The notes: generated by a model from the sequence alone, not told the origin. A DNA stretch of 64,000 nucleotides from an uncultured Gammaproteobacteria bacterium (GCA_964404855.1 CAYOLO010000001.1:595396-659395), one strand, 5' to 3'. Numbered from the stretch's first letter, positions 19,722-53,340 are shown. Made by a program: numbers and translations.

Positions 19722-19736
19722 CTGACCACCCTCAAA

Positions 19737-24493: not shown

Positions 24494-24979
24494 ATGGATA
24501 CAAACAACAATAACAACCCCTTGGACCCGGGATTGGGTTCTACTCCTCCTACAAGTGATGCTAGCTCAGATGCTCCAGTTGTTGCACCTGATATGGGTGT
24601 ACCTGTTGCACCGGCTCCAGACCCACTCGATGTTCCAGTAGTGGATGTACCTGTTGCACCAACAACTGATGCACCTGCTCCTGAGATGGAAATGCCAGCT
24701 CCAGTTGCAGATGTTCCTGCACCAGCAGCTGTAGTTGATGTGCCACCAGTTGCACCAGTAAACGATGCGCCTGTTGGGTTTGACCCTGCAATTCCTGCAG
24801 CCGAAGCCCCAGTTGGTGACTCTCAATACAACGCTGACGTTGATGCTGCAAAAGCTGACTTTCATACTGGTATGGATAATATTGAAAAAAAGTATGATGC
24901 TCCAGAAACAACACCTGTTTCAACTGACTCAGCAGTTCCAACTCCAACAACTGACGCTCCAGCCGAAGGTCAGAGTTAA
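24494..24979 (+). CDS. Pro/Ala/Val/Asp-rich low-complexity protein
   Basis: 161 aa with repetitive PVAP/DVPV motifs and an acidic pI. Confidence 0.4.
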   Translation: MDTNNNNNPLDPGLGSTPPTSDASSDAPVVAPDMGVPVAPAPDPLDVPVVDVPVAPTTDAPAPEMEMPAPVADVPAPAAVVDVPPVAPVNDAPVGFDPAIPAAEAPVGDSQYNADVDAAKADFHTGMDNIEKKYDAPETTPVSTDSAVPTPTTDAPAEGQS

Positions 24980-35635: not shown

Positions 35636-38600
35636 TTAGTTCAGAACGGAAACCGAGTCGAAAGTTGCAGTCGATATTTGTGAGCCGTTGTGTGAGGTGA
35701 CAAATAAACCAATATAAATATTTTCATCCAAACTCACCGTCTTTGCGTCATATAAAACCCAATCTATTCCCGTACTCGAGGTGTAAGCAGAAATTGTATT
35801 GCCGATTCTAACTAATTTAAGGTAAGTATCGGGGAAATTATAAGACAGGCCGTTAGTATTGCTGTTAAAACTATTTTGAAAAGACACACCATTATTTGGA
35901 GTTACCGAAAGCAGTGCATAATCGGATCCAGAAGTAAGCGAGTTTTTGATTATGACTCCTGCCTTGGCCCAATCATTAGTATTGGTTTGAGAGGTAATTC
36001 TGGTTGATATTTCACCATCACCAATAAGTGGCTGATAAACAAATTGGAATTGATCAGCATCAGCCCAAATATCATTACCTGCTCCATTTAATGTAAATAT
36101 TGAACTGTCAAAACCTGCACTTCCTCCAAGTGTTGGATTACCAATATCGGTATTTAGCCAAGGACTTGGCAATGAAGCTATTGGGGTGGTTGAGACAGAT
36201 ACATTATCGAAAGTAACGGTACTAATATTTGAACCGTTATGTGATGTTACAAATAGTCCAATTTTGACATCTTGGTTAAGAGTTACAGTTCTGGTGCCAA
36301 TTAATATCCAACTGACTCCATCAATTGAACTGTAACTCGCAATATTATTTCCATCTCTTTTGAGCTTAAGCCATGCGTTTGGGAATATATAACTAGGTCC
36401 TGCAACTTCACTGTTAAAACCATATTGCATAACGATGCCGTGCGCTGGAGTCACAGCCAATAAAGCATAGCCAGACAGGCTTTGAGTTGAATCTTTAATA
36501 ATTATCCCAGCTTTGGCCCAGTCATTAGTATTGGTCTGAGTTGTAACACGAGTAATAATTTCGCCATTTCCAGATAAGTCTTGACTAACAAAATACATTT
36601 GATCAGCGCTTCCCCATATATCATCCCCCGCGCCTTTAACGGTATAAGTCCCATTAGAATAAGTAGCTGAGCCTAGTAGTTTTGGATTTCCAATATCAGT
36701 ACCAGTAAAAGGTGCAGGCACACCGCTTGGAAGTCCAGTTGAAACTAAACTGACATTATCAAAAGTTGCGGTCGATATTTGTGAGCCGTTGTGTGAGGTG
36801 ACAAACATACCGACAGTAATTGGACCTGAAAAGTTAATAGTTGTTGTGCCAGCAGATGCCCAATTAACCCCATCAGATGAGAGAAAAGAAGTAATTATGT
36901 TGCCTTCTCTAACTAGCCTTACCCAAGCGTTTGGAGAATTGAAACTTCCCCACTCAGATCCTGTATTAAAGTTGGTTTGAAAGGTGTACCCGTGTTGAGG
37001 GGTAACTGCAAAAATTGCATAAGGTGATTGCGGGGTTATGTTTTGTTTAATCATTACCCCTGCTTTTGCCCACCCATTAGTATTAATTGTTTGCGAGGTA
37101 ATTCTGGCGGTTATCTGGCCATTACCGGTAATATTTTGATAAACATACTGAAACTGATCGGATTCTCCCCAAATGTCATCGCCTGCTCCACTTACTGTGA
37201 ATGTTCCTTGATTAAATGTGGAACTACCTACCGTAAGAGGATTACCAACATCAGTATTTTGCCAGAGTCCAGTTAAACCCTGTTTAACAGTTACATTGTC
37301 AAAAACCGAGGTATTAAGTTCATTATATTTATGAGAAGTGACAAACATGCCGATCGTCACATTTTCATTCATAACTATCTCAGTCGAACCAAGCATTACC
37401 CAGTTAATTCCATCTACTGAAGTGTAAGAGGTGAATGTATTGTTAAATCTGACTAACTTAAGCCAAGCGTTGGGGAAGGCGTAACTAGTGCTCCCGTTTT
37501 CTGTATTAAAGCTGTGTTGAAAAGTCACTCCGTTTGCTGGAGTTACAGCGACTAATGCATATTTTGAACCGGAAGTAGCTGTTTCCTTTATCATTATTCC
37601 TGATTTTGCCCAATCGTCTGTATATTCTTGTGAAGTAACACGAGTAATGATTTCCCCGTTACCTGAGAGTGGTTGATAGACATATTGGAATTCATCGGTT
37701 GGCCCCCAAATATCTCCACCAGCTCCATTAATTGAAAATGTTCCGCCAGTATATGAAGCATTGCCAGATATTAGCGGTGTTCCAATATCTATACTAATCC
37801 ATGGAGCAGGTGGAATTTGAAACTCGCTAAAGTTAGCAACGTAAGAAGTATTAACAGATGGAGTAGTAATTGTGTGAGATTGAGTTAGCCCATCAGACCA
37901 ATTAAGAAATTGATAATAATAGTTTAAATAATACTGAGGAGACGGAGCACTCAAAACTCGCTCAACACCAACCACAGCAGATTCTGTATGAACCCCAAAG
38001 TAAGGAATTCCGTCAATTGTATAAGAAACGTTTGGGAAATTTGCGTTAAAGGTTAATGTCACTAAATTAGGATAAATATGTGTTGATGTTTTAGTACTTA
38101 GACCTTGAGAATCTGTAGTTGTCAGTTGGATTTCATACCAAGTGTTAGCCAAGTTGTCTGCTGATTTAGGAATCGTAAATTGTCCTGATCTTTGACCTAA
38201 AACAGGATGCCAAAATGGGTGAATGTGATCACCGTGATGGAAAACAAAATTCCATGAGAAAGCAGAATCAGGAAGTTCTAGATCTTCTGGGTCGCTGCCT
38301 GCTGCAGAATAACTAATTATGTCCCCAGCGTTGTAGTGACTATCAGTAACGGGAGCAATTATAGTCCCTTGAGGCAAACTGTTTCCTACAGTAATTATCA
38401 CTGTTTCAATATCACTCTTGTCGCCATCGGAGATGGTAAGGCTTACATTATGTGTACCATTAACTGTAAAAATATGAGCTGGATTACTATCAGTTGAAGA
38501 ATTGCCGTCACCAAAATCCCAAAGATAACTTAATTCATCACCGTCTGGATCAGATGATTCCGAGGAATCAAAATTAACAGTCAAAGGACCGAGCCCAGCA

Positions 38601-39769
38601 ATAGTTGATGGATTAATATCTGCAATCGGAGATCTGTTACCGCCTGATGGTGCAATAACTGAAAGTGTACCTGGGTAAAATGTCAGTTTGTAGATATTGC
38701 CATCAGGACCTTGTGAAAGCTGAACCGTCGTGCCTGCTTCTGTGTCAAAAGAATTATCTGAAATAACTGACTCAAAATTTGAATCAAATTTTAGATATCT
38801 AATAAAACCCAAAGTATAGTCGGCGTAAAAAAAGGCATTTTGGTATTCACTTGGAAAAGTTGACCCTCCATAAACTAAAGTGGATGTAATCGATCCCGCC
38901 TTGGCTGGGGGATCGGTGTGAGGATAAACAAAAACAGGATTAACATATGGACAACTAGAACAAATTCCTTCAACATTCGGCCAACCATAGTTGCCCCCTT
39001 TGTTAATAATATTAAGCTCTTCCCAAGCGTCACCACCCACATCTCCAACAACGGCCCTACCGTCTGGAAGGAAAGTAAACCTAAAAGGATTCCTTAACCC
39101 GTAAGCCCAAATGGATTTAAGAGCATTTGGTGTTGAATAAAATGGATTATCGGTAGGGATTGTGCCGTCTTTGTTAATTCGGTGTATTTTGCCGTGCACG
39201 TTACTTAGGTTTTGTGAATTAAGATTGTGGGTATTCATACCCATAGCCCAATAAAGCTTGCCGTCGGGACCAAACCTAATTTCCCCTCCATGATGATAGA
39301 TATCACCTTGTTGGTTTGACTCGAGAAGAATTAGTTCAGAATCGGCACTAGCAGTGTCGCCTATTACGGTTATGCGAGAAAGTCTGTCAAAATTCTGTGC
39401 GGTGGTATATGCAACATATAAATATCCATTATTTGCAAAATCAGGATCTGGTTCAATTCCTAGCAATCCCCTTTCGTCAGCGTTGTCTGTTTGCAGAGTA
39501 ACGATTGTAATTACTGGTTCTGTCTGAATTTGGCCATTTGCAAAAATTTTAATTGCTCCGGTTTTTTCGGAAATAAAAATTCTTCCATCTGGCATAAATC
39601 GAAATGCAGTTGGTTCATTAAGATTAGAAACAAGCTCAGTAATATCGAACTCAGTTGGTGGCGCGGCATTAATTTGACCTGGAGTAATGATTAACGCCAC
39701 TAAAAAAACAACAACCGAGATTGTTGTAAAAGCAAAAAGATTTCTAAGTAAATTTTTCAGATATTTCAA
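35636..39769 (-). CDS. giant secreted multidomain protein: PQQ-dependent sugar dehydrogenase-like beta-propeller + PKD domain + 4 tandem ~184-aa jelly-roll-like repeats
   Basis: Signal peptide. GLLGIEPDPDFANNGYLYVAYT (soluble quinoprotein glucose/sorbosone dehydrogenase-like). PKD motif in ...LSYLWDFGDGNSS.... Four repeats carry GAGDDIWG...DQFQYVYQ...WAKAG(V/I)(M/I)IK...FVTSHNGS. Confidence 0.75.
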   Translation of the reverse strand: MKYLKNLLRNLFAFTTISVVVFLVALIITPGQINAAPPTEFDITELVSNLNEPTAFRFMPDGRIFISEKTGAIKIFANGQIQTEPVITIVTLQTDNADERGLLGIEPDPDFANNGYLYVAYTTAQNFDRLSRITVIGDTASADSELILLESNQQGDIYHHGGEIRFGPDGKLYWAMGMNTHNLNSQNLSNVHGKIHRINKDGTIPTDNPFYSTPNALKSIWAYGLRNPFRFTFLPDGRAVVGDVGGDAWEELNIINKGGNYGWPNVEGICSSCPYVNPVFVYPHTDPPAKAGSITSTLVYGGSTFPSEYQNAFFYADYTLGFIRYLKFDSNFESVISDNSFDTEAGTTVQLSQGPDGNIYKLTFYPGTLSVIAPSGGNRSPIADINPSTIAGLGPLTVNFDSSESSDPDGDELSYLWDFGDGNSSTDSNPAHIFTVNGTHNVSLTISDGDKSDIETVIITVGNSLPQGTIIAPVTDSHYNAGDIISYSAAGSDPEDLELPDSAFSWNFVFHHGDHIHPFWHPVLGQRSGQFTIPKSADNLANTWYEIQLTTTDSQGLSTKTSTHIYPNLVTLTFNANFPNVSYTIDGIPYFGVHTESAVVGVERVLSAPSPQYYLNYYYQFLNWSDGLTQSHTITTPSVNTSYVANFSEFQIPPAPWISIDIGTPLISGNASYTGGTFSINGAGGDIWGPTDEFQYVYQPLSGNGEIITRVTSQEYTDDWAKSGIMIKETATSGSKYALVAVTPANGVTFQHSFNTENGSTSYAFPNAWLKLVRFNNTFTSYTSVDGINWVMLGSTEIVMNENVTIGMFVTSHKYNELNTSVFDNVTVKQGLTGLWQNTDVGNPLTVGSSTFNQGTFTVSGAGDDIWGESDQFQYVYQNITGNGQITARITSQTINTNGWAKAGVMIKQNITPQSPYAIFAVTPQHGYTFQTNFNTGSEWGSFNSPNAWVRLVREGNIITSFLSSDGVNWASAGTTTINFSGPITVGMFVTSHNGSQISTATFDNVSLVSTGLPSGVPAPFTGTDIGNPKLLGSATYSNGTYTVKGAGDDIWGSADQMYFVSQDLSGNGEIITRVTTQTNTNDWAKAGIIIKDSTQSLSGYALLAVTPAHGIVMQYGFNSEVAGPSYIFPNAWLKLKRDGNNIASYSSIDGVSWILIGTRTVTLNQDVKIGLFVTSHNGSNISTVTFDNVSVSTTPIASLPSPWLNTDIGNPTLGGSAGFDSSIFTLNGAGNDIWADADQFQFVYQPLIGDGEISTRITSQTNTNDWAKAGVIIKNSLTSGSDYALLSVTPNNGVSFQNSFNSNTNGLSYNFPDTYLKLVRIGNTISAYTSSTGIDWVLYDAKTVSLDENIYIGLFVTSHNGSQISTATFDSVSVLN

Positions 39770-39884: not shown

Positions 39885-39929
39885 ATGAAAAAGGGACGGA
39901 GGCTTGCTATATTAGCAAACTTCCGTCCC
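39885..39929 (-). terminator. rho-independent terminator for the gene at 39967..41148
   Basis: GGGACGGA...TTCCGTCCC long hairpin with an inner TTGCTA/TAGCAA stem, followed on the minus strand by TTTTTC. Confidence 0.75.
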
Positions 39930-39966
39930 ATGAATGTGGTCGAATGAACGACTCGAGAATTGGGAA

Positions 39967-41148
39967 TCACCGGTGACACTGCGCGAGTGCAGCCTCAGCT
40001 GGTTTACCCATTGGACTAAACCCCAAATCAGGCTTGTTTGGGTCCGGCAGAGTGAGATCCACTTGCCACCAATACAAACCATTGATAAGGGGAACGAAGA
40101 CTTGGCAGGTCGCTTGATAATAACGAAGCTGGGCTTCGTAATCAGCCGGCGACTCAGATAGGTAGTTCCACGGCTTTTGGTACGCTCCCTGTCTGGGGAG
40201 AATTCCTATTTCCGTAAAAACTACAGTCTTGGGGTCATACCCCTTACTGGTAATGTCGGCTATCCAACGCTGCCAGCCAGCAACAAGCGAATCAACGCTT
40301 GCACCAGTTGGTACATCGAGCGGATAGTAGGCATCGATTGAAGGAAAGTTCAGATCGCTGGCAAAGCCGGGGGCTTTGACGTCCCAGTTAGCCGAATATG
40401 TGATTTGGCCATCGTACTGGGTACGAACTACAGCGATTAGCGCTTTCCAAAGAGCGACCTCTGGCTCAAGCGAGACAAACTCGGTGCCGACATTGAGAAC
40501 GGCAACTTTTTCTTCTTGAGCAAGTTTGGCGTAGCCAACCAGAAGTGAGGAGTAGCTGTTAAACCACTGTCCTTTATCTGTTGGACTGAGCTGGCCTCGC
40601 CATTTTCCGTCGGCAACCAAAGAGGACTCATCCAGAATCGGCCTAAGCATAACAGTGAAGTTACGCTTGTGTGCCTCTCGGATAAATATCCTGATGTTGT
40701 CGTCGGTCGGAGTCTTTTTGGGGTCCTTGTAAACCTCCACTGATTGCCAGTTCGACTGGAAAACAGGAAAGACTAGGCTGACAGAATTGATGTTCAGCTC
40801 TGCCAGCCTATTGAGAAGTTTGGGTGCCTTTTCAGCAAAATCTCCTCCGTCGCTGTACACCAAAACCGAAACGCCTGCATGATATGCCAGCGAATCAGTT
40901 CGAGGACTTACCACTCGGTTGATTTTGGGAGTTGGTGTAGCGGTCGGAGTCGATTCTTGAGTTGGCGCGACTGTCTCACTTTCGGAAATTGGAGTTCCGA
41001 TTGTGGTAGTAGCATCTGCAACTTGAGTGCTATCAGATTGCTCCTTAGCACCAGTTTGCCCACAAGACACGACACAGAAAACTGCTACAGCCAGGCTAAC
41101 GAATAGTCCCGCCGACAGCAGAAGGTCGTTTTGGCGCTTCGTGATCAA
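39967..41148 (-). CDS. lipoprotein, glycoside hydrolase-like TIM barrel (GH-A clan-like)
   Basis: Lipobox VVSCGQ. NVGTEF and VVFTEIGI candidate catalytic glutamates. GC-rich. Confidence 0.45.
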   Translation of the reverse strand: MITKRQNDLLLSAGLFVSLAVAVFCVVSCGQTGAKEQSDSTQVADATTTIGTPISESETVAPTQESTPTATPTPKINRVVSPRTDSLAYHAGVSVLVYSDGGDFAEKAPKLLNRLAELNINSVSLVFPVFQSNWQSVEVYKDPKKTPTDDNIRIFIREAHKRNFTVMLRPILDESSLVADGKWRGQLSPTDKGQWFNSYSSLLVGYAKLAQEEKVAVLNVGTEFVSLEPEVALWKALIAVVRTQYDGQITYSANWDVKAPGFASDLNFPSIDAYYPLDVPTGASVDSLVAGWQRWIADITSKGYDPKTVVFTEIGILPRQGAYQKPWNYLSESPADYEAQLRYYQATCQVFVPLINGLYWWQVDLTLPDPNKPDLGFSPMGKPAEAALAQCHR

Positions 41149-42613
41149 GATAGTCCTTCTCCGTAACCAACCCGTGGTTGGTCTTCTCCCAGAAGTGCGG
41201 ACGGGTAGCCAGCTGGTATAGGGCTTTCCAAGTCGCGAAACTTAGTATTGCCCAGTACAGCGGAGCAAGAACCATCCACTTGATGTTGCCATGCAATCCT
41301 CTGACCTTGCAGCCCATCATCACGTAAAGGACGAACAAAACGTTGCCCAACGCGATAGAAAAGATGCCGAGATAGAAGATCGGAAGCGGATACAACTCTT
41401 GGATGAAGGTTGCATTCGTCGCCTGATAGGCAAGCGTCATGAACCAGAAGATCGGATTGACCAGCAGTGTAAGAGGCGTGGTCATTACGATCACCATGAA
41501 GGAGACGAAGTTGACGAAACCCAGATCCCTGTAGAGGCTGACTGGGTTGCGTGAGTGGACGAGGAAAGTAATCATCCCACCCTTCTTCCAGCGCGAACGC
41601 TGGCGAACCAGGTTGCCGAGATGACTGTTGGCTTCTTCCCATGTCACACTGTCCATCAACTTGACCTGAAGACGGCGACGGGCGATACGAATGCCCATAT
41701 CAATATCTTCGGTCACGTTGTACATGTCCCAGCCTCCCAACCCAAGTAGGGTTTGGGTACGGAAGTGATTGGATGTGCCTCCCAAAGGGACAGGCATTCC
41801 TAATCGTCCGAGCCCTGGAAGGATCAGATTGAAGTAGGTCGCATACTCAGCGCTGAAGAACTTCGTAATCCAGTTGGTCTGGGGGTTGAAGTACTCCAGT
41901 TTGGCTTGAATACACGCTACTCGCCTACTGACTTTGCGGAAACAGACGACAGCTTTTTTGAGCTGATCTGGTTCTGGTCGGTCTTCGGCGTCGTAGATAA
42001 CGACAAATTCTCCTGTTGCCCTTTTCAGACCCTCATTACAAGCCTTGGGCTTGGTTTTGAGGTTAGAGTCAGGCATGATCAACACCTCAAAATGAGGCGG
42101 AAGCGCTTGCGAGTTAATCTCGCCAAGAGTCTGGGAGTCCTTTTCTTCCAGAAGCAGAATAATCTGCAGTCGGTTGGTAGGATAATCCAGATTGGTGAGA
42201 TTCACGATTAGCTTGGAAGCTATTTCGTGCTCGTCAAAGAGTGGAACGAGGATTGTGTACCTCGGCAACTCAGGTCCATTAGCAAGAGCATCTAGCTCTG
42301 CCATCGAAACCTTGATGAGTGCCGATTCCAGTGACTTGACTGTCAGCAGGCTCTTGAAGATGATGACGGTGACATAGATCAGAGTGATCGTCCCCGCGAA
42401 CCCCAAAAGAACCGGCATATAGCCAAACATGATGATGCTAGCAACCACACAAGCAACAATTGCGAGTGCGGTAATGCTTTGCGGTATGGTCAGAATAACC
42501 TCAGCGGTCTCTGACTTGGTGCGCGGAGCGAATTTATTTACTACCCCGCGTCCATTTTTGACATGTTCTGGTCCGATCAAAGCTTCCTCCTGTGGGAAGA
42601 AAGAACTGACCAA
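41096..42613 (-). CDS. membrane glycosyltransferase family 2, processive type (QxxRW)
   Basis: IYDAEDRPEPDQL, VRQRSRWKKG and multiple TM segments. GC-rich homolog of the GT2 at 1552..2799. Confidence 0.8.
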   Translation of the reverse strand: MVSSFFPQEEALIGPEHVKNGRGVVNKFAPRTKSETAEVILTIPQSITALAIVACVVASIIMFGYMPVLLGFAGTITLIYVTVIIFKSLLTVKSLESALIKVSMAELDALANGPELPRYTILVPLFDEHEIASKLIVNLTNLDYPTNRLQIILLLEEKDSQTLGEINSQALPPHFEVLIMPDSNLKTKPKACNEGLKRATGEFVVIYDAEDRPEPDQLKKAVVCFRKVSRRVACIQAKLEYFNPQTNWITKFFSAEYATYFNLILPGLGRLGMPVPLGGTSNHFRTQTLLGLGGWDMYNVTEDIDMGIRIARRRLQVKLMDSVTWEEANSHLGNLVRQRSRWKKGGMITFLVHSRNPVSLYRDLGFVNFVSFMVIVMTTPLTLLVNPIFWFMTLAYQATNATFIQELYPLPIFYLGIFSIALGNVLFVLYVMMGCKVRGLHGNIKWMVLAPLYWAILSFATWKALYQLATRPHFWEKTNHGLVTEKDYLDHEAPKRPSAVGGTIR

Positions 42614-42647
42614 GGGTGGAGGCGAAGATGTGACTCCTCACTCCCAC

Positions 42648-44348
42648 TCACTCGATCAATTCCTTACGCTGGTAAATCTGAATCTGCTCATTTTCGAATA
42701 CGAGCAGATAGTGTTGATCCAAAGCTTCAGTGTTATTGAGGCTCCTGTAAACCTTGTCCTGATTGGCTTGCGAGTTGCGCATCACAACCCAGTCGACGAA
42801 TTCGGCCGGGCTATTTAGCGCCGGCTCCCACATTCGGTAGCTTCCCTCATAGAGAATCTCACGAATAGGAAGTTTTGAGCTGACTTGCAAGTCTTCGTTG
42901 CCGTAACTTTCCATCAAGACAAGTCCTGATGTGTAGTTTTGGCTTAGCCAGTAGGCTGCATCACGCTGGGTAACTGAAAGTGGTTTTTCCATGTCCGCCT
43001 TGGGCTCGTTTAGGGTGATAATCTCACCCTGATAAGCCACAAATGCGGAAAAAGCACAAACACCACCTACAATTACCGCACGACTGATGACGAAGTTCTT
43101 GGTCAGGTAGCCTGCAAAGATCGCCAAAGGCAAAATCATAGGCAGAGAAAACCTGACGTTGTACAGATCCCCCGTAACCTGTTCAACATAAAGCGGCCTT
43201 TGACCGAAGTAAAGGGCCGCGACGAAGAACGGGAAAGGAAACAGCAGAGCGTAAACGGGAGCTTTGCGGATATTTTTAGAGTCGCTGACAATGAAGTAAG
43301 CGAGACCGATTAGTCCGAAAAACAGCGTAACGGCGCCTGCAGTTTCGTAGGTTGCGATTGAGTAGGTCTTGAGCGCGATCCAGAAGTTTCCAACGGCTTT
43401 TTCAGACTCTCCAACCCAAAGGGAAGGTTTGGCATACTCACCGTACTGGAAATACAAGGGGTTGCCAAAGATTTGATAGTTCCAGATCAGCCATCCGACA
43501 ATGCCGAGGCTGGCTAGAAATGTCAAAAAGAAGACTTCTCCCTCAACACGCTCTTTCGGCATTTTTTTGTTGATGCAGACTACGCCCCAAAGCGGAACGA
43601 AAAGGGCCAGAAGAATCCAGCCTTCGTACCGCGTCATGGTTGCGCAGATTAGCATCAGCGCGGTCGCCAACCCATAAACGATGTTGGAAACAGGCTCGTC
43701 GATTTTTTGCGTCCACCTTATGAAAAAGTAGACACTGCCCGACAAGAACATACACAAAGGCAGTTCTGTCATAGCTGTCGACTGCATATAACCAACGTTG
43801 GGGTTGGCCACGAAAACCAGACTAGCTACGACACCAGCCCAGCGTGAACCGGAGATTGTTTCGGTTATCTTGTACAGAAAAACGGAAGTCCCCACAAAAC
43901 AGAGCATCGAAGGAATACTTCCTGCAATACCTGTCTTGTAGAGATAATCATTCCAGATCAGTGGCTGCATGAGCAGATGCGGTAGCGGTGGCCAAACTCC
44001 GCCGAGCTGAGCCAATCCCGGTGTGGGGCTGTCAACAACTCTTTTGGCGATGAGTAGATGCGATTGTGCGTCTTTGTAGACCAGAACTAGGTCGTTGGTG
44101 TAGTAGTAGACGAAGTTGACTACAGACACCAGAAGTGTGATGGTGATGATGACCAAAAGCAGGTTGTCCCGCTTGTGGCTATCTTCGCTAGTAACGACTG
44201 CCGGACGCCTTACGGCTACGGTCTGGCGAACGTTCGTTTTGGTTGCAACTTGCTTGGTTGCGACTGACTGAGACCGAACTTCGGACGTAACCAGTTTGTA
44301 ACCGGTTCGCCCGCAGTAATAAGCCACAGCAAAAATTGAGCGCAGCAT
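42648..44348 (-). CDS. GT-C superfamily polytopic membrane glycosyltransferase (ArnT/PMT-like)
   Basis: 566 aa with more than 10 TM segments. Conserved acidic motif in the first periplasmic loop (YKDAQSHLLIAKR). GC-rich. Confidence 0.55.
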   Translation of the reverse strand: MLRSIFAVAYYCGRTGYKLVTSEVRSQSVATKQVATKTNVRQTVAVRRPAVVTSEDSHKRDNLLLVIITITLLVSVVNFVYYYTNDLVLVYKDAQSHLLIAKRVVDSPTPGLAQLGGVWPPLPHLLMQPLIWNDYLYKTGIAGSIPSMLCFVGTSVFLYKITETISGSRWAGVVASLVFVANPNVGYMQSTAMTELPLCMFLSGSVYFFIRWTQKIDEPVSNIVYGLATALMLICATMTRYEGWILLALFVPLWGVVCINKKMPKERVEGEVFFLTFLASLGIVGWLIWNYQIFGNPLYFQYGEYAKPSLWVGESEKAVGNFWIALKTYSIATYETAGAVTLFFGLIGLAYFIVSDSKNIRKAPVYALLFPFPFFVAALYFGQRPLYVEQVTGDLYNVRFSLPMILPLAIFAGYLTKNFVISRAVIVGGVCAFSAFVAYQGEIITLNEPKADMEKPLSVTQRDAAYWLSQNYTSGLVLMESYGNEDLQVSSKLPIREILYEGSYRMWEPALNSPAEFVDWVVMRNSQANQDKVYRSLNNTEALDQHYLLVFENEQIQIYQRKELIE

Positions 44349-44861
44349 TTAGGCTTTACCCTCCGAAGAAGTCTTCTGATGGATGACGACAGGGACTTGG
44401 GGTTCGTGGTGCTTTATTGCGAACACGAACCTGTGACTGGCGATGTACGACAGCACAAGTCCAGCGACCGTGCCGAAAACAAGTGACGGGAGGTGGTTGA
44501 AAACCAGAATCGACAAACCAAACACAAAAGTGTTGGTAATCAAGCTGGTAAGAGCCATGATATTGAACTTCACGAGTGAAGCAATCCCACCTAGGAAACC
44601 ATGAGCTGGTTTCTTTCTGTCACTCCATGTGAAGTGAAAACTCAGGAGGTAGTTGGTTTGGGTTGAGACAATGAAGGCAAAGGCGTTAACCGCCGTTATC
44701 TGCCACCAAAGTTCAAACCAAGTGGTTGAGAGAATACCGAAGAAGAGCGCGTACTGGAGGCTCGTGCAAACGAGGCCGACAGTCAAAAACTTGATGACGC
44801 GCTGGAGGTTAATCCGCTCGCCAAAGGTCTGAAGGACAGGACCGGATACGATTGGAACCAC
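44349..44861 (-). CDS. GtrA-family polysaccharide synthesis membrane protein
   Basis: 4 TM segments; KFLTVGLVCTSLQYALFFGIL is typical of GtrA. Start codon uncertain. Confidence 0.6.
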   Translation of the reverse strand: MVPIVSGPVLQTFGERINLQRVIKFLTVGLVCTSLQYALFFGILSTTWFELWWQITAVNAFAFIVSTQTNYLLSFHFTWSDRKKPAHGFLGGIASLVKFNIMALTSLITNTFVFGLSILVFNHLPSLVFGTVAGLVLSYIASHRFVFAIKHHEPQVPVVIHQKTSSEGKA

Positions 44862-45109
44862 GGAAGAAACTCTCCATTTCTCGAATACGTTTTTAAGGTA
44901 CTCCGCTCTGGTGTTGCGACGCCCTATAGTTCTGTCGTCAAGATGACGGAAAAACTTTTGGGATTACGCAATTAATGTTTTCATAAGCTCGATTATTTAG
45001 TCCGATAACACTGATGTGTTTTACGGTCTATTTCGACCTATAGTTGCGGAGCTTGGATTATAGGTAAAAACTATCAATAGGTCAAGCGCGAAGTTTATAA
45101 ATGAAGAGA

Positions 45110-45760
45110 TTAATTATTAGCAAAAACGAAGGCGGCGTAGAATCCGGCAATTCCTCCGCAGCCGATTTGCCAGCTCGGGTTCTGTAAAGCTTCCCTATGT
45201 CCTGTTAGTGATCTATCCCAACCAAACTCAACGATATGTACTCCAGATAGAGCTTGACCGCCGTACAAAACTTCGCCGAGGTGGATGAATTCGTTCTGAC
45301 TTTCGCCGTATTTATTAAAACCTGCATGATTGTCTAATCCGCCATTGGCAACTTGTTCCTCTGCGCGTTTTTGAGCAATATCACAGATTGTGGAATTAGA
45401 AGTCAAAGTATTAAGCCCGTGGGCTTTGCGGTAGTCATTGACGGCTGCAAATAACTCATCGCGCGTGGACATATTTTCGGAAATTGGAACAGAAAATTCG
45501 GTTAGATGCTCATCGACTTTGCGAACTGACCAATCTGGAGTTGGAGTGGGAAGCTTTTTATTTTGAGTTTGAAGATTGTTTTTGATTGAGCCTGTTTCAA
45601 CAGCACTTGTTTCGATTTTGGCTTCAGATGTGGCAGTATTAGTCCTTAATAGACTACGGCCAATTTTTTCAATATTTGTAAGCTGAGAAGGCAGATTGAC
45701 AGCGTAGGTAAGAAAAACAATACCAACAAAAACAGTGATAATTACCAATATTTTGACCAT
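45110..45760 (-). CDS. CAP/SCP/PR-1-like domain protein with N-terminal signal anchor
   Basis: ORF trimmed to the MVKILVII start at 45760. C-terminal GHREALQNPSWQIGCG matches the CAP-domain GHYTQ...GC signature. Confidence 0.6.
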   Translation of the reverse strand: MVKILVIITVFVGIVFLTYAVNLPSQLTNIEKIGRSLLRTNTATSEAKIETSAVETGSIKNNLQTQNKKLPTPTPDWSVRKVDEHLTEFSVPISENMSTRDELFAAVNDYRKAHGLNTLTSNSTICDIAQKRAEEQVANGGLDNHAGFNKYGESQNEFIHLGEVLYGGQALSGVHIVEFGWDRSLTGHREALQNPSWQIGCGGIAGFYAAFVFANN

Positions 45761-45800
45761 TTGGCTAAATATCCTATCATAGGATAAGGATTTTTTAATT

Positions 45801-46835
45801 ATGAAGGTATTAATTACAGGTATTTCGGGGTTTCTGGGTATTAATTTAACGAGATATTTCTTATCTAAAAATGTTGAGGTTAGAGGTATTGACTTGGTTG
45901 ATTTTGAGTATCCAGAAAAAAATAAGATTGAAATGATTGTGGGCGATATTCGCAATAAGTCTAATGTCAAAAAAGCTATTTTAGATGTGGATTATGTGGT
46001 CCATTGTGCCGCAGCACTACCTTTGTACCCTGATGATGATATTTTTTCGACCGATATATTAGGTACAAAAATACTACTTGAAGAGTCGTGGAAACAAAAT
46101 GTGAAAAGATTTGTTTATATTTCATCGACTGCTGTTTACGGGATTCCTGACCATCACCCAATCTCAGAATCTGACAAATTAATCGGAGTTGGTGCGTATG
46201 GAGTTAGTAAAGTAAAGGCGGAAAAAATTTGTGAAAACTATCGTGAAAAAGGAATGATATTACCAATACTTAGACCAAAGAGTTTTGTCGGCCCTGAACG
46301 TTTAGGAGTGTTTGCCCTTTTTTATGACTGGGCAAAATCTGGCAAAAATTTCCCGATGATTGGCAGTGGTAAAAACAAGTATCAGTTGCTTGATGTTGAA
46401 GATTTGTGTCAAGCAATTTGGCTTAGTTTGACTAAGCCAAAAGCAGTGGTTAATGACACATTTAACATTGGTGCTAAAGAATTTTTGAGTATGCAAGAAG
46501 ATTATCAGGCGGTATTAACTGAAGCTGGATTTGGTAAAAAAATCATTCCACTGCCTGCAAAACCGACCATATTGGCGCTGATTCTTTTAGAAAAACTAAA
46601 ACTATCCCCTCTTTATAGGTGGGTCTATGAAACAGCTGGCAAAGATAGTTTTGTCTCAATCGAAAAAGCGGAGAAAAAGCTGGGATTTAAACCAAAATTT
46701 AGTAACAGTGAGGCACTAGTTAGAAATTATAGGTGGTTTTTGAAAAACTATGACTATTTTAATGGCTTATCTGGTGTTACTCACCGAGTGCCATGGAAAC
46801 AGGGAGCTTTAAGTCTAGCGAAGATATTTTTCTGA
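45801..46835 (+). CDS. NAD-dependent epimerase/dehydratase (SDR family)
   Basis: ITGISGFLG Rossmann motif and YxxxK region; 344 aa. Confidence 0.85.
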   Translation: MKVLITGISGFLGINLTRYFLSKNVEVRGIDLVDFEYPEKNKIEMIVGDIRNKSNVKKAILDVDYVVHCAAALPLYPDDDIFSTDILGTKILLEESWKQNVKRFVYISSTAVYGIPDHHPISESDKLIGVGAYGVSKVKAEKICENYREKGMILPILRPKSFVGPERLGVFALFYDWAKSGKNFPMIGSGKNKYQLLDVEDLCQAIWLSLTKPKAVVNDTFNIGAKEFLSMQEDYQAVLTEAGFGKKIIPLPAKPTILALILLEKLKLSPLYRWVYETAGKDSFVSIEKAEKKLGFKPKFSNSEALVRNYRWFLKNYDYFNGLSGVTHRVPWKQGALSLAKIFF

Positions 46836-46842
46836 AGAAAAT

Positions 46843-46866
46843 GCCGCCCTTTTTACGGGGCGGCAA
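46843..46866 (-). terminator. GC-rich hairpin, likely terminator for the minus-strand small-gene pair (weak for the + strand)
   Basis: tgccgccc-loop-ggggcggca stem with a U-rich tract on the minus-strand side. Confidence 0.5.
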
Positions 46867-47116
46867 CTGATGAACTCATGCTTGTCAGGCTCATCCTTGC
46901 GGGACAAACTGAGGCGGCGCGAGCAGGTAGTTCGGCACATGGAGCGTGAAGGTTCTGGACGTCCAGACACACTTGTCGCCGTCGTGACCTTGAGAAAATG
47001 CGCTTCGGGCGATCCGAACCCGCTCCTCCGCAATCACCCGTCGATGAGTGTTGCCGTTGGGAACAGCACCACCAACTAAATCGACTTCGCCGCAGATGCA
47101 GGCGAAAGACGTAAAC

Positions 47117-47332
47117 TCAATGTCCACTTCTGATACTCCCTTCCGAAAGCAACCTGTCGTAAGCCTCCGTGACCATTTCGCGAGTGATGGCAGGGTTTTC
47201 GATGTAAGTGTTGCCAAAGACAAAACTTATCATCTGTGCCCTGCGGTCAGCGGGAGTCACTATGACTCCTCGAGTTTTGACCAAAAGATCGTCGAGGTCT
47301 GGTGTGTTGGAACGCTGTGATGTCATGCACAC
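47117..47332 (-). CDS. small hypothetical protein (GC-rich island)
   Basis: 71 aa, 8 bp downstream of the preceding ORF. An overlapping alternative-frame ORF at 46891..47223 suggests a possible frameshift or degeneration. Confidence 0.3.
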   Translation of the reverse strand: MCMTSQRSNTPDLDDLLVKTRGVIVTPADRRAQMISFVFGNTYIENPAITREMVTEAYDRLLSEGSIRSGH

Positions 47333-47340
47333 TTTACTTC

Positions 47341-47667
47341 TTATTCACCTCCAGTAAGATGTTGGATGTTCGGAAGCGCTTCCGCGAGTGAATTCCAGCC
47401 TCTTGGACGCAGAACTTCGATGCTGCGGAGTTCGGCGACTTCGAGCATGAACCCGATATGGTGGATGACTTCGTCTCTGGCTGCACCATTGAAGATGTGC
47501 AGATAAAGTGAAGCCGCGAAGGCTTCTCTGTTGGTGAGGGCTTCGGCTTCGTCGGCGCTGTAGATGAAATTCACAGCTGTTTCGGCAAGTTTCTGCCCAT
47601 AGCGTTTAGCTAGAACATCGAGAGCTTGTTGGGCTTGTGGGGACAGGACTGCTACTTGAGCACTCAT
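47341..47667 (-). CDS. hypothetical protein (GC-rich island)
   Basis: 108 aa with no known domain. Confidence 0.4.
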   Translation of the reverse strand: MSAQVAVLSPQAQQALDVLAKRYGQKLAETAVNFIYSADEAEALTNREAFAASLYLHIFNGAARDEVIHHIGFMLEVAELRSIEVLRPRGWNSLAEALPNIQHLTGGE

Positions 47668-47730
47668 CTTTACTTAGATAAACCGCCTTTTTTAATGAGC
47701 TAACAGATAGTCTACTCTAATAGGATTTTT

Positions 47731-47767
47731 TTGCAAGAAAAAGGCGGCCATATGGTTAATGGCCGCC
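47731..47767 (-). terminator. rho-independent terminator for the gene at 47814..48845
   Basis: ggcggccat-atggtta-atggccgcc perfect 9-bp stem, with a T-run on the minus strand. Confidence 0.8.
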
Positions 47768-47813
47768 AAAGAGGACTAGTTGACGGAATGTTCTTTAGCT
47801 CGCGAAAACAGGC

Positions 47814-48845
47814 TTAGAACCTGCGGCTCGAACCTTTAGATTTGCCGCCTGGGCCGGATCGGAAACCTCTAGTGTCCGTAAACGACTTCATTTTGCCGTT
47901 ACGTCCGGTCGTAAAGGTACCGATGCCCGGAACGTGCTGTGATGTGCCGGTAAGGTTGCCTCGGTTGTCGTGGTGGAAGGTCAGGCCGAGGCCTGGCACC
48001 TGCTGGGAAGAACCTCGGGTATTACCCCGACGGTCTTGGTTGAAGCTCAGGCCTGGTAGGCCCGAACGGGTCGAGGAACCGGTATGGTTGCCGCGGCTGT
48101 CGCTGCGGAATGTCAGGCCGAGTCCGTCGTTGCGAGGGCCTTGATAGCCACCGCCACGAGGTGCTCGTGGTCTTGGATGCTCGCGGCAATAGAAATCCCT
48201 GCTCGCATCGGGTTCAAACGGCAGATTCATCACGGAGTGCTGACCACCGACGCAGTAGGCAGCGTACTTCGGTTGAGGATGTTCCTTGCAGTGGAACGGT
48301 CGGTCGCCATTTGGCTGGAATGGAACTTTGACTGTGTGTAACCCGCCGGTGCAGAATGCGTCGAACATCGGCTTGGGGTGATCGCGACAGTAGAAGTCAC
48401 GCTTGGGGTCTGGAGCTCGGTTGAGCCCCTGAACTGTGTGACTACCGCCGACGCAGTACCCAGAGAATTTTGGTTGCGGATGGTCGCGACAGAAGAAGTC
48501 GCGCTTGGGGTCGGGTTGGAATGGAATCTTGGTTTGATGGTCCCCGCCAACACAAAACGCATCGTACATGACACGAGGCGCTGATTTGTGGTCTCGGCAG
48601 TTGAACGGTCTGCTACTGTCCGGTTCGAATGGGAGTTCGACCGTGTGCCCGCCGTTTTTGCAGTGGGCGGTGTACATTTCACGCTGAGGGCGTGTTTGCT
48701 GACTGCCACCGCCTTTGCGGGCAGCACGGCAATTTGGGCACCGCGTGGGTTGTGAGAATCCTTTCTCAGCGAAGAATGTCTGTTCCCGTTCGGAGAAGTC
48801 GAACCTCTGCGAACAGTCTTTGCAGGTGAGGGTTTGGCTGGGCAC
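47814..48845 (-). CDS. zinc-ribbon + tandem Cys/His repeat + RGG/Gly-rich tail protein (putative nucleic-acid binding)
   Basis: N-terminal CKDC...CPNC ribbon. Five ~34-aa repeats F/YCxGGxH(T/S)V...PFxPDxxRDFxC(R/K)(D/E)HPxP. C-terminal GLGLTF(R/H)xDxRGNxTG repeats. Confidence 0.6.
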   Translation of the reverse strand: MPSQTLTCKDCSQRFDFSEREQTFFAEKGFSQPTRCPNCRAARKGGGSQQTRPQREMYTAHCKNGGHTVELPFEPDSSRPFNCRDHKSAPRVMYDAFCVGGDHQTKIPFQPDPKRDFFCRDHPQPKFSGYCVGGSHTVQGLNRAPDPKRDFYCRDHPKPMFDAFCTGGLHTVKVPFQPNGDRPFHCKEHPQPKYAAYCVGGQHSVMNLPFEPDASRDFYCREHPRPRAPRGGGYQGPRNDGLGLTFRSDSRGNHTGSSTRSGLPGLSFNQDRRGNTRGSSQQVPGLGLTFHHDNRGNLTGTSQHVPGIGTFTTGRNGKMKSFTDTRGFRSGPGGKSKGSSRRF

Positions 48846-48997
48846 GAAGAAGAATACCTTTCTCTAACCGTGATAAGCAGGAACTGGTTTGAATCGTACA
48901 ACTAGTTAATGTGCTTAGTCCTTTCTGTTGAGGGTTTGACACTCTCAAGTTGGAAATTGGAGTAATTATATCAAAAAATAACAACTATGGGATTGAA

Positions 48998-49035
48998 TAA
49001 GAAAAAGGAGAAGCCAAATTAATAGTCTTCTCCTT
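48998..49035 (-). terminator. rho-independent terminator for the gene at 49060..49518
   Basis: ggagaag...cttctcc stem followed on the minus strand by TTTTTCTTATT. Confidence 0.75.
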
Positions 49036-49059
49036 ATGTTTGTCTGGTCGAATGCCTTT

Positions 49060-49518
49060 TTAGGTGGCGGTAGTGATCCGCTTGGTGCGCATTTTCGCTT
49101 CTTCAGCGAAACTGCTCTTGTGGCTGTTGACGACAAGGGCGACATCAAAGTTCTTGATGGGGGTTTCGCACCGAGTGAAACGCCACGCGTCGTAAATCAT
49201 CGTGTAGATGGTCCTAATGTGAGGGCCGTCGGAGTCCTGACGAGCGATCAACTTGAGCTCGTCGACCGTAAGGTTAGCGACGACGCTTCGGCCACATTCG
49301 AGCCTGGCTTCGCCAGCCCTGCAGATTACGAGGCGGTCAGTTGGCCCGTTGGGGTTGAACCGAACGATTTCGAGCCTGCCGTGGGCGCGGTGAGCGATGT
49401 TCGCCAGCTTCTGGGTGAAATAAGCCAGCGAGTTTTCGTCGTTTTTGGGGATACGACGAATCTCGGCCGTAAGGCGCCTGACGGAACGCGGCTTCCTATG
49501 AGCTTGCCTGTGCGACAT
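49060..49518 (-). CDS. hypothetical basic protein (GC-rich island)
   Basis: 152 aa, Arg-rich N-terminus. GGAG Shine-Dalgarno 8 nt upstream of the ATG. Confidence 0.5.
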   Translation of the reverse strand: MSHRQAHRKPRSVRRLTAEIRRIPKNDENSLAYFTQKLANIAHRAHGRLEIVRFNPNGPTDRLVICRAGEARLECGRSVVANLTVDELKLIARQDSDGPHIRTIYTMIYDAWRFTRCETPIKNFDVALVVNSHKSSFAEEAKMRTKRITTAT

Positions 49519-49698
49519 TACTACTCCAGATTAAAAGTTCCTTGCCTCAATCGTTCCCACCCACAGGCTGTGGACAGGTCTTTTTGACACAAGAGCGGTA
49601 TTCTAGCTCAATTATTGTAAAAATACAACAATATAAACTAAAATAATTCAATCCTGTAGTAAACTGTATTTTAGTTAAATTGATATAATAATTGCATA

Positions 49699-50355
49699 AT
49701 GGAGAGAGAGCCAATTTTTATTGCCCACAAGGGTGATACAGTAAATTTTCCCGAAAACACCCTCGAAGCGTTTGAGAGTGCTTTTAGTAAAGGTGCAGAT
49801 GGAATTGAAATGGATGTTCACTTAAGTGATACAGGTAAGATAATTGTGGTCCACAATTATCTCTATGACAGGAGGCAAAACTACCCAACGCTCGACGAAG
49901 TACTGGCAAGATTCGCTTCTCGAGGAAGAATTGAGATTGAGGTGAAAGAATTAGAGGAAAATGCCCTTGCAATTATTGAGGGGATTGTAAATAAATACAG
50001 ACCTTTTGATGTCGAAGTAACCACAAGTGTCCAACCACTCATGCCAAAAATTAGTGAAGTTTTTAATACTGACAGGCGCGGACTTATTTTTCGTAACAAT
50101 TTAATTGAAGATTGGATGCCCGAAGAATTTCGTATTAAATGGATTTTGGCACACTTACATTTAACTGGGGCAAATGTTCTGCATCTTGACCTTGACCTCT
50201 ATACACCAGCAATTATTGCTGCTATGCGAAATAAAAAAATTGTGACACATACACACATAAAAGCGGATAACAATGAAGCCATCGACAAAGTTAGACTATT
50301 GAGAATTGATCAATTCACTTTTGATGATATCGAACTACTAAAACAAAAGAAGTAA
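49699..50355 (+). CDS. glycerophosphodiester phosphodiesterase
   Basis: IAHKGDTVNFPENTLEAFESAFSKGADGIEMDVHLSDTGKIIVVHN GDPD catalytic motifs. Confidence 0.85.
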   Translation: MEREPIFIAHKGDTVNFPENTLEAFESAFSKGADGIEMDVHLSDTGKIIVVHNYLYDRRQNYPTLDEVLARFASRGRIEIEVKELEENALAIIEGIVNKYRPFDVEVTTSVQPLMPKISEVFNTDRRGLIFRNNLIEDWMPEEFRIKWILAHLHLTGANVLHLDLDLYTPAIIAAMRNKKIVTHTHIKADNNEAIDKVRLLRIDQFTFDDIELLKQKK

Positions 50356-52722: not shown

Positions 52723-53340
52723 TTAGGCTTGAGAGCCAAGCGACTCGGCTACGAGTTTTGCAAACTCGTCGGCCATTGTATCGCGGTTGTGCCAACCGAC
52801 CTTGAACATCACGACCTCATCGCGATTAGCAAGCTGTTGACCAGCTTCCATAATCATTCTGGCCATGTCTAGGCGCTTGGCAAGCTCTTCAGCTTCCATT
52901 GCCTGTCTCGCGGTCATGTTGTGAGTCAGATACTCTGGCTCTGCTTCGAGCACGAACCAGCGCACAAGACTGACATCTTTGGCCTCTGGCCTTTCAGCAA
53001 GCTCCTGAGGAACTGCTGCCTGATAAACGGGATTAAGCTCGATGATGGCGCCAGTTGCGCCGCCAGCGGCTAAGGCTTGGATGTCCCCAATGCGGTAAGC
53101 ATAGTGGAATCCCTTGTTTTCGTGATGACCGACCAACTCACCACCGTTAAGATGGTTTTCGTAGTCAGCACCAGAGATACAGATTTTGGTTTCGATGCCT
53201 ACGCCCCTATCAGGACGGGTCGTAACCATCTGAGGATTGCTCAGCCCGAGCCGTTCGATGACGACTTGTGTGAGGTAATCCTTACCAGCTCCGGATGGTC
53301 CGGAGATCCCAATTACTGGAATTTGTTTTGTTTTATCCAT
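52723..53340 (-). CDS. gmk: guanylate kinase family protein (GC-elevated)
   Basis: P-loop GISGPSGAGKD, TTRPDR and downstream Gmk-like regions. Noticeably higher GC than the flanks. Confidence 0.65.
   Translation of the reverse strand: MDKTKQIPVIGISGPSGAGKDYLTQVVIERLGLSNPQMVTTRPDRGVGIETKICISGADYENHLNGGELVGHHENKGFHYAYRIGDIQALAAGGATGAIIELNPVYQAAVPQELAERPEAKDVSLVRWFVLEAEPEYLTHNMTARQAMEAEELAKRLDMARMIMEAGQQLANRDEVVMFKVGWHNRDTMADEFAKLVAESLGSQA

Follow-up and report, generated by a model that had tools for sequence, protein, structure and literature searches.

The window analysed here is a single stretch of 64,000 nucleotides (nt), titled as coming from an uncultured Gammaproteobacteria bacterium (GCA_964404855.1, CAYOLO010000001.1:595396-659395), in which two GC-rich groups of genes interrupt an AT-rich sequence. 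We refer to them as block A (39885-45085), a putative envelope-glycan operon, and block B (46843-49600), which consists largely of small orphan genes. A first-pass annotation of the sequence had described the region as a GC-rich genomic island, and the compositional core of that description stands on computation. GC content is 0.496 for 39885-45000 and 0.535 for 46843-49600 by segment, against a background of 0.38-0.40 (0.380 in the left flank, 0.379 for 45001-46842 between the blocks and 0.395 in the right flank). A 1-kb sliding profile stays at 0.33-0.43 across most of the window but rises to plateaus of 0.49-0.51 (40-45 kb) and 0.48-0.55 (46.5-49.5 kb), between which it dips to 0.36-0.40. 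Resolved at 200 nt, the changes are abrupt and intergenic, lying at ~39.9, 44.9, 46.85 and 49.55 kb. GC content at third codon positions (GC3) is 0.50-0.61 in the open reading frames (ORFs) of block A (39967-44861) and 0.50-0.72 in those of block B (46891-49518), compared with 0.26-0.36 in ~45 other ORFs. The low-GC pair between the blocks, a CAP-domain gene and a sugar epimerase gene, had been judged native by eye, and its GC3 of 0.30-0.35 is indeed native-like.

Both blocks therefore deviate in composition and codon usage, the pattern by which horizontal islands are recognised. A check by sliding-window GC and by tetranucleotide frequency, as proposed at first pass, gave a divided answer. 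The GC profile resolved sharp islands and the raw tetranucleotide distance to background was high for both blocks (z = 5-9), but the GC-normalised tetranucleotide signature was no outlier (z ~0) and does not discriminate the island. The island signal is thus essentially one of base composition and codon usage.

All real genes in both blocks lie on the minus strand, and each transcription unit ends in its own GC-rich hairpin terminator, both as reported in the first-pass annotation. The four terminators fold into stable hairpins followed by U-runs (-26.3, -17.0, -18.4 and -14.7 kcal/mol; z = -7.7 to -4.0), a stability that none of 200 shuffles attained.

Block A forms one operon, which opens with a near-consensus promoter and a long conserved leader and closes with a strong terminator. 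The promoter and the ~190-nt conserved leader (44862-45085, minus strand) lie in AT-rich DNA and form its right boundary. The promoter, TTGACC-17-TATAAT at 45085-45057, matches 11 of 12 consensus positions, and the leader contains blocks that are invariant between species, including two copies of a 9-mer, AACTATAGG, to which we return below. The leader has no match in Rfam. A structured RNA or riboswitch was considered for it and dropped, given the absence of an Rfam match and the weak evidence for a consensus fold, whose covariation term was positive (three lineages).

The first gene of the operon (44349-44861, minus strand) encodes a small membrane protein of the GtrA family (Pfam GtrA_DPMS_TM, E = 6.4e-13), and its stop codon abuts the ATG of the next gene. 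This second gene (42648-44348, minus strand) encodes a 566-residue polytopic membrane glycosyltransferase of the GT-C type (PMT/GT39-like), with matches to Pfam PMT (29.7 bits, cutoff 22.7) and PMT_2 (28.4 bits, cutoff 26.1) and at least 8 transmembrane (TM)-like segments. No sequence match to any solved structure was found for the GT-C protein, and its single-sequence AlphaFold2 (AF2) model was unusable, with a predicted local distance difference test (pLDDT) score of 40.

The third gene (41096-42580, minus strand; GC3 0.60) encodes a 494-residue, membrane-embedded, processive-type GT2 glycan synthase resembling BcsA and XagB (Pfam Glyco_trans_2_3 and Glyco_tranf_2_3). Its motifs are DAED at residue 197, TED at 290 and QRSRW at 327, and TM-like segments flank the catalytic domain, two on the N-terminal side and at least two on the C-terminal side. 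In sequence matches to the PDB, the best solved relatives were a minimal cellulose-synthase-like entry (6yv7) and BcsA (4hg6). A GGAGG ribosome-binding site precedes the TTG start codon at 42580, a start that agrees with relatives of 494 residues. The last gene (39967-41148, minus strand; GC3 0.50), whose start overlaps the 3' end of the GT2 gene by 53 nt, encodes a glycoside hydrolase of the beta-mannanase family GH113 (Pfam GH113, E = 7.7e-44; profile PF22612, 150.6 bits against a cutoff of 27). The protein matches the structures of the endo-beta-1,4-mannanase AaManA (4cd6 and 3civ) at E = 3e-23, and in the alignment to 4cd6 each conserved motif pairs glutamate with glutamate (VGTEF with vgcEm, FTEIG with fmEvG); we take these two residues to be the catalytic pair (acid/base and nucleophile) of AaManA. 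Its single N-terminal hydrophobic segment, lipobox-like VVSC (residues 26-29) and Thr/Pro-rich linker make the GH113 protein a probable lipoprotein. The intrinsic terminator that ends the operon (39885-39929, minus strand; -26.3 kcal/mol, z = -7.7, then UUUUU) is also the left compositional boundary, and GC falls to 0.21 immediately outside it.

On this domain content, the GT2 protein would polymerise a nucleotide sugar and extrude a beta-linked glycan, which the partner enzyme GH113 suggests may be of mannose or N-acetylmannosamine (ManNAc) type. The membrane-anchored, extracytoplasmic GH113 protein would trim or release the polymer, as BcsZ does for cellulose. The GT-C protein, with the GtrA protein as helper, would add sugars from polyprenyl-phosphate donors on the outer face, decorating the GT2 polymer or some other acceptor.

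Several known systems share parts of this arrangement. As in cellulose-type BcsA/BcsZ systems, a membrane GT2 with D, DxD, TED and QxxRW motifs adjoins a predicted extracytoplasmic glycoside hydrolase; unlike BcsA systems, the operon has neither a BcsB-like partner nor a PilZ receptor domain for cyclic di-GMP, and it adds GT-C and GtrA. In Clostridioides difficile, a cluster of GT2, GH113 and epimerase genes is predicted to make a ManNAc-rich, synthase-dependent exopolysaccharide (PMC7710045). The window resembles this cluster of strain 630 in that its hydrolase is a GH113 and a sugar epimerase gene lies nearby, and differs in that the epimerase is an SDR enzyme and not WecB. A GtrA-family gene directly upstream of GT-C and GT2 recalls the Gtr three-component systems. 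The GT2 of the window, however, is a 494-residue synthase-type enzyme with QRSRW and multiple TM helices rather than a GtrB of ~300 residues, and the operon includes a glycoside hydrolase.

The order GT-C-GT2-GH113 recurs in other phyla, in a Patescibacteria metagenome-assembled genome (MAG; L016), a Dormibacteraeota MAG (L018) and a high-GC contig (L019). In the other-phyla loci, identities to the window are 48-54% for GT2, 31-39% for GT-C and 37-42% for GH113. The window module differs from these in being preceded by a free-standing GtrA gene and in having a composition foreign to its genome. In Nakamurella sp. PAMC28650 (L020), the GT2 homologue is preceded by a fusion of GtrA, a GtrB-like GT2 and GT-C and has no GH113 beside it, while one database protein (P0056) is a GT2-GH113 fusion. 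The GT-C-GT2-GH113 module appears to be uncharacterised.

These loci also bear on the gene immediately beyond the left boundary of block A. It encodes a 1377-residue secreted or anchored protein (35636-39769, minus strand; GC3 0.28) with GSDH, PKD and four DUF1349 domains in Pfam, and is a functionally linked neighbour that lies outside the compositional island. In Nakamurella, a GSDH-PKD-DUF1349 protein (L020, 10865-13638) with 37% identity over 875 residues is encoded two genes downstream of the GT2 homologue, and in the high-GC contig a DUF1349-repeat protein (L019, 2-2824), 35-39% identical to the window protein, lies beside the GT-C-GT2-GH113 module. Given these neighbours and the native composition of the window gene, the glycan cluster is larger than the compositional island and is a mosaic. 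Since the GC-rich operon sits within this functionally coherent but compositionally mosaic locus, we suggest that it is either an insertion beside an older glycan cluster or a xenologous replacement within it.

Block B comprises three transcription units: a translationally coupled operon of ORFs of 108, 66 and 78 residues (47667-46891), a zinc-ribbon gene and a gene for a 152-residue protein. The small operon begins with the 108-residue ORF (47341-47667, minus strand), found with identical sequence on 15 contigs; its product is 47% identical to that of the sister species described below and has an invariant FNGAARDE core. The 66-residue ORF (47117-47317, minus strand) is kept in the relatives L001 (63%), L011 and L012, and is 69-70 residues long in relatives. 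The third, of ~78 residues (46891-47127, minus strand), has a GTG start that overlaps the stop of the ORF upstream (GTGGACATTGA overlap), substitutions in the order codon position 3 > 1 > 2 and 73-82% identity in the sister species. The terminator of the operon (46842-46865, minus strand; -17.0 kcal/mol) is the left boundary of block B.

The second unit (47814-48845, minus strand), with its terminator at 47743-47767 (minus strand; -18.4 kcal/mol), encodes a 343-residue protein, zf343, with zf_Tbcl (E = 7.7e-14) and repeated zf_Tbcl_2 (E = 6e-22) zinc ribbons and a match to NCBIfam TIGR04272. It has CxxC-x17-CxxC repeats and a Gly/Arg/Ser-rich tail; the gene contains internal DNA repeats and has the highest whole-gene GC in the window. 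Only three full-length homologues were found among 5.8 billion proteins, all within the clade, and no match to the gene was found in either locus of the sister species, L001 or L007.

The right-most GC-rich gene (49060-49518, minus strand), with its terminator at 48998-49035 (minus strand; -14.7 kcal/mol), encodes an orphan protein of 152 residues that is 49% identical in the sister species and has two related representative clusters among 1.84 billion. Its AF2 model (pLDDT 79.5) gave no significant fold match in the PDB. The coding pattern is on the minus strand alone, where substitutions follow position 3 > 1 > 2. A plus-strand ORF at 49036-49587 was rejected as a non-coding antisense shadow, its substitutions falling at codon position 1 and not 3.

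All block B proteins show a coding substitution pattern. The four small ones have no Pfam match, none of the five matches PHROG or PADLOC, and essentially no homologues occur beyond the clade. The arginine fraction R/(R+K) is 0.67-0.88 in block B, 0.36-0.49 in block A and ~0.3 in native proteins. Because block B is arginine-rich and essentially without outside homologues, blocks A and B probably have separate histories. The right edge of block B is variable, as shown by the absence of both the zinc-ribbon gene and the adjoining GDPD gene (49699-50355) from the sister species (L001, L007) and by a different right flank in the relative L012, which lacks GDPD, most of Cu-oxidase_4, the Mur-ligase-like gene and the kinase-like gene at 52.7 kb described below.

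The first-pass annotation had taken the organism for a Saccharibacterium, a conclusion that the protein matches contradict. UvrB shares 97% identity with a protein named Candidatus Curtissbacteria bacterium, followed by a group at 86-89%. The next matches lie at ~65-67%, and those with names are mostly Curtissbacteria, apart from a single Amesbacteria and a single Saccharimonadales. The name Curtissbacteria is also carried by a cluster-mate (>90% identity) of the epimerase, and NCBI taxonomy places this lineage in the Microgenomates group of the Patescibacteria, or candidate phyla radiation (CPR). On these sequence matches we assign the window to an ultra-small bacterium of the Candidatus Curtissbacteria type, and the argument from an epibiont living on Actinobacteria consequently has no basis here. 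The public titles of two related records, 'uncultured Gammaproteobacteria bacterium' for L007 and 'uncultured Bacteroidetes bacterium' for L008, are placeholders; that of L007 is clearly wrong, since its locus is syntenic with the Curtissbacteria window.

The relatives recovered are contigs encoding GT2 or GT-C proteins 76-97% identical to those of the window. They comprise L001 and L002 from ENA samples, L003-L006 from four Logan runs, the GTDB species representative L007, L011 (GCA_964418515.1), L012 (GCA_020050275.1), the fragments L013 and L014, and the JGI metagenome contig L017. In every relative recovered, from at least eight independent samples or assemblies, both blocks occupy the same site with the same GC excess, in the common order PPDK ... 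MBL-fold ... GSDH/PKD/DUF1349, GH113-GT2-GT-C-GtrA, CAP, epimerase, small ORFs. In L001, for example, GC is 0.51-0.53 in the matching segments against 0.39-0.45 elsewhere, and GC3 is 0.56-0.64 against ~0.40.

This conservation disposes of the suspicion that foreign GC-rich fragments were stitched into an AT-rich CPR contig during assembly or binning. Such artefacts deserve attention, as CPR genomes come from metagenomes and some related MAG titles are mislabelled as Gammaproteobacteria or Bacteroidetes. An assembly chimera is nevertheless excluded by the identical order, junctions and GC-rich segments across the independent ENA, Logan, NCBI and JGI sources; furthermore, the blocks alternate with native genes, and the promoters and leaders at the junctions are themselves conserved. 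We consider the probability of an artefact negligible.

The age of the blocks follows from comparison with a sister species, represented by L001 and L007. Identities to this species are 87% for UvrB, 86% for PPDK, 75% for the epimerase and 76-77% for GT2; block A proteins as a whole range over 53-77% and native proteins over 52-94%, so that the two groups show parallel divergence. Fourfold degenerate (4-fold) sites of native genes are almost saturated (identity 0.324 against 0.271 for random), from which it follows that the blocks predate the split and were present in the common ancestor. They are old, fixed parts of the genus and not recent imports. The first-pass annotation had named conservation of the island genes in synteny across the whole lineage as an observation that would count against its proposal, and this is largely what was found, the genes being conserved at the same junctions in every relative.

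The module does not seem to extend through the phylum. Named Curtissbacteria, frequent among UvrB matches at ~65% identity, are absent among the best 120 GT2 matches, which argues against broad vertical presence and suggests, as far as these matches go, that the GT-C-GT2-GH113 module is not general in the phylum.

Beyond the clade, the best GT2 matches are not actinobacterial. They include contigs of the L015 type (GT2 56%, GH113 47%, contig GC 0.47), the Patescibacteria MAG L016 (54, 38 and 37% for GT2, GT-C and GH113), whose module is slightly GC-richer than its flanks, and high-GC sequences of Dormibacteraeota/Terriglobales type (GT2 51-54%). Actinobacteria follow at 47-51%. In a midpoint-rooted neighbour-joining tree of GT2, computed without bootstrap and open to bias from amino-acid composition, the window clade groups with the L015-type contigs and L016, and Actinobacteria form a separate clade.

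These relationships undercut the origin proposed at first pass, namely that a Saccharibacterium recently took up the genes from its high-GC actinobacterial host. That proposal accounts for the contrast between GC-rich blocks and AT-rich chromosome. Actinobacteria do carry homologous modules (Nakamurella, with its GSDH-PKD-DUF1349 neighbour, and a Frigoribacterium plasmid), and the ancestral GC at 4-fold sites (GC4) extrapolates back to ~0.7-0.8 if amelioration is ongoing at the island's slow rate. Nevertheless, the organism is a Curtissbacterium in whose clade the island is fixed and syntenic while native synonymous sites are saturated, the nearest GT2 relatives (54-56%) belong to moderate- or low-GC lineages including a Patescibacteria MAG, and the island's GC3 of 0.5-0.6 lies far under the values typical of Actinobacteria. 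Recent transfer from such a host is thus highly improbable.

Our preferred reading, to which we assign a probability of roughly 0.6, is that the blocks were most likely acquired horizontally before the genus-level clade diverged, neither recently nor demonstrably from Actinobacteria, and that block A is an envelope-glycan operon. The composition is best read as a sign of foreign origin, and the donor may conceivably have been GC-rich. The blocks resemble classical genomic islands in their sharp break of GC and GC3, their atypical codon usage and the accessory-type surface-glycan function of block A. Unlike classical islands, they have no mobility genes, tRNA target or flanking repeats, and are fixed across a genus-level clade rather than variable between strains.

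A number of observations, taken up in this and the following paragraphs, weigh against this reading. GT2 identity beyond the clade is flat at 47-56% across many phyla, so that no donor is identifiable. As the nearest GT2 relatives include L016, in which the module has near-native GC, vertical descent within the CPR with a local rise in GC is conceivable. No empty site turned up in a scan for the epimerase in genome contigs, which yielded one true relative (L007), or in a scan for the CAP gene in metagenome contigs, which yielded one near-identical contig; acquisition is accordingly deduced from composition alone. As for function, domain content and motifs are directly observed, and from these we infer what kind of polymer is made and how the enzymes share the work. 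The GT2 protein reached no NCBIfam equivalog cutoff, CelA and PgaC included, and no BcsB or PilZ domain of Pfam or NCBIfam was found in any gene of the block A operon.

Signs of mobility are likewise scarce. No integrase or recombinase match to Pfam or PHROG was found in the blocks, the only direct repeats around them are short chance repeats, and no tRNA gene lies within 30 kb, the tRNA genes of the window being confined to 5.9-8.1 kb. Nor is there a phage signature, in that no phage-family match and no viral-contig relative was found. The same absences bear on the proposal that a prophage, an integrative element or a defence island left block B, and possibly block A, as a remnant. Small orphan genes, each with its own terminator, would suit a remnant of this kind, as would the variability to the right of block B, a gene with a Phage_30_3 domain at a distance of a few kb in L012 and the occurrence of GT2-family modules on plasmids in other phyla. 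Against these stand the lack of an integrase or recombinase, flanking direct repeats or a nearby tRNA gene, the lack of PHROG or PADLOC matches in block B and the failure to find relatives of three block B proteins, the 108- and 152-residue proteins among them, in 2.9 million viral contigs. On balance we regard a mobile remnant as improbable. On the conjugative plasmid pEF60063-1 of Geobacillus stearothermophilus (L024; CP128455.1, 30229-41590), a nucleotidyltransferase-BcsB-GT2-GT39 module adjoins a tyrosine recombinase; its GT2 is 40% identical to that of the window, indicating that related synthase modules are mobile in other phyla.

The persistence of the GC excess presents a further difficulty for horizontal acquisition, since the excess has outlived a divergence that saturates native synonymous sites. 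Turnover at 4-fold sites was compared for the window against L011 and L012, both close relatives, over ~20 genes and in two comparisons that are not independent. In the GC-rich genes 17-30% of 4-fold G/C sites differ, against 43-67% in the interleaved native genes, a 2-3-fold gain in stability (gene-level Mann-Whitney p = 3e-4 and 1e-3), and the contrast persists at matched local GC (Mantel-Haenszel odds ratios of 7.7 and 5.0). A/T 4-fold sites show no significant difference between the classes. Slowing of G/C decay by local duplex GC or stability was rejected as an explanation, because the class difference remains at matched GC and within a class higher GC does not go with lower turnover. A single recent recombination tract was rejected as well, low turnover being found in three loci (block A, block B and the 52.7-kb gene) and not in the native genes between them.

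Two further genes share the high GC of the blocks; the first-pass annotation had allowed for a few isolated patches in the otherwise AT-rich remainder of the window. The first (52723-53340, minus strand; GC3 0.53) encodes a 205-residue P-loop protein with weak guanylate-kinase matches; it is syntenic and GC-rich in the sister species too, with a promoter and 5' untranslated region nearly identical between species. The second is a 99-residue orphan gene (19422-19721; feature 19372-19772, plus strand; GC 0.50), located between a 637-residue gene and uvrB, with its own terminator at ~19739-19770 and no match in Pfam, PHROG or NCBIfam. The gene and a motif upstream of it are conserved in a sister-species locus, L021. 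Not every GC-rich patch has this character, however: at 24494-24979 (plus strand) a GC of 0.49 stems from amino-acid composition (GC1 0.72, GC3 0.23) and not from foreign codon usage.

The motif upstream of the 99-residue gene is the 9-mer AACTATAGG of the block A leader. It has four exact copies in the window against 0.43 expected, a number reached in 0 of 100 shuffles. All are minus-strand copies. The block A leader holds two (45037-45045 and 44923-44931); a third (53396-53404; conserved in L001, L007 and L011) precedes the kinase-like gene by 56 nt, and the fourth, inverted, stands ~45 nt upstream of the 99-residue gene (19372-19380; conserved at the equivalent place in L021). Every copy therefore lies just upstream of a GC-rich unit, three units in all, and each of the four sites has a conserved counterpart in the sister species (L001 7586, 7697 and 1201; L021 8410) although synonymous sites are saturated. 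The units of block B lack it, and its palindromic core CTATAG is found also near some native promoters. A likeness to the initiation core of T7/SP6-type promoters was considered and dropped, because the sequence upstream of the 9-mer is not conserved between sites.

Taken together, low turnover and the shared motif raise the alternative that the GC-rich genes are a class held at a higher GC equilibrium of its own, by synonymous or mRNA-level selection or by GC-biased gene conversion in segments that recombine often, possibly with co-regulation through AACTATAGG, and of foreign or native origin alike. The stable 4-fold G/C sites speak for this, as do the low turnover in three loci with unaffected native genes between them (which argues against one recombination tract) and the placement and conservation of the motif. 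Polarised changes in the GC-rich genes are, moreover, near balance, at 127 GC>AT to 97 AT>GC, with no clear amelioration, and GC4 follows the background of each genome, being 0.60 in L001 but ~0.52 in the window and in L011 and L012. Part of the contrast is nonetheless expected under neutrality, for by calculation G/C sites at GC4 0.54 differ only ~0.68 times as often as those at 0.30. Measured over all synonymous sites, the GC-rich genes turn over at ~0.55-0.75 of the neutral expectation, a deficit that does not favour plain acquisition and decay; it touches every type of substitution, however, and lower mutation or a shared history might account for it. The ratio of 127:97 falls between the predictions for equilibrium (1:1) and for ongoing amelioration (~1.7-2.7:1), each at p ~0.05; the parsimony polarisation is visibly biased, native genes giving 154:249, and the polarised substitutions are too few to separate the two. 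In addition, the zinc-ribbon gene zf343 shows no effect, the comparisons are few and interdependent as stated, and CTATAG occurs beyond the GC-rich units. We therefore think an equilibrium class of this kind unlikely, albeit deserving of more weight than the other alternatives. Its fullest version would join both blocks and the singletons at 19.4 and 52.7 kb into one long-lived compositional class of a reduced CPR genome, at a GC equilibrium of its own, with selection, or GC-biased gene conversion in recombination-prone segments, actively protecting synonymous sites that end in G/C, and with part of the class marked and co-regulated through AACTATAGG; this version is doubtful to a marginally greater degree. 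Ancient horizontal acquisition remains the reading we prefer.

The two genes between the blocks complete the locus. The CAP-domain gene (45110-45766, minus strand; Pfam CAP; GC3 0.35) encodes a secreted protein that is 73% identical in the sister species. Its start is probably the Met at 45766 and not that at 45970, since the relatives are annotated at 216-217 residues. The longer ORF (45110-45970, minus strand) overlaps the start of the epimerase gene on the opposite strand by 170 nt, and similarity upstream of 45766 is a shadow of the epimerase coding sequence. The epimerase gene (45801-46835, plus strand) encodes an NAD-dependent sugar epimerase/dehydratase of the SDR type (Pfam Epimerase, E = 2.4e-42), with no NCBIfam equivalog; it is syntenic and 75% identical in the sister species, and could possibly supply precursors. 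A frameshifted copy of the epimerase with 69% identity occurs without shared synteny in a Bacteroidota-like MAG (L008, CAVUXT010000043.1, 10001-11034), next to OmpA-family, hybrid sensor kinase and polyphosphate kinase genes. This similarity hints that the 'native' epimerase may itself have moved between phyla.

As a matter of method, the window cautions that a sharp GC island does not equate with recent transfer, and that a host taxon assigned by eye can be wrong, as it was here. Three features merit follow-up, namely the survival of the GC excess, the lowered synonymous turnover and the upstream motif that units share; slow G/C synonymous turnover, if general, would bear on the amelioration clocks used to date transfers. 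The recurrent and apparently uncharacterised GT-C-GT2-GH113 module, with its DUF1349-repeat neighbours, is a reasonable biochemical target. CPR bacteria, with their tiny genomes, rely on contacts that their cell surface makes with other organisms. Because of that reliance, an acquired and retained operon for surface-glycan synthesis could plausibly determine attachment or envelope structure in Curtissbacteria.

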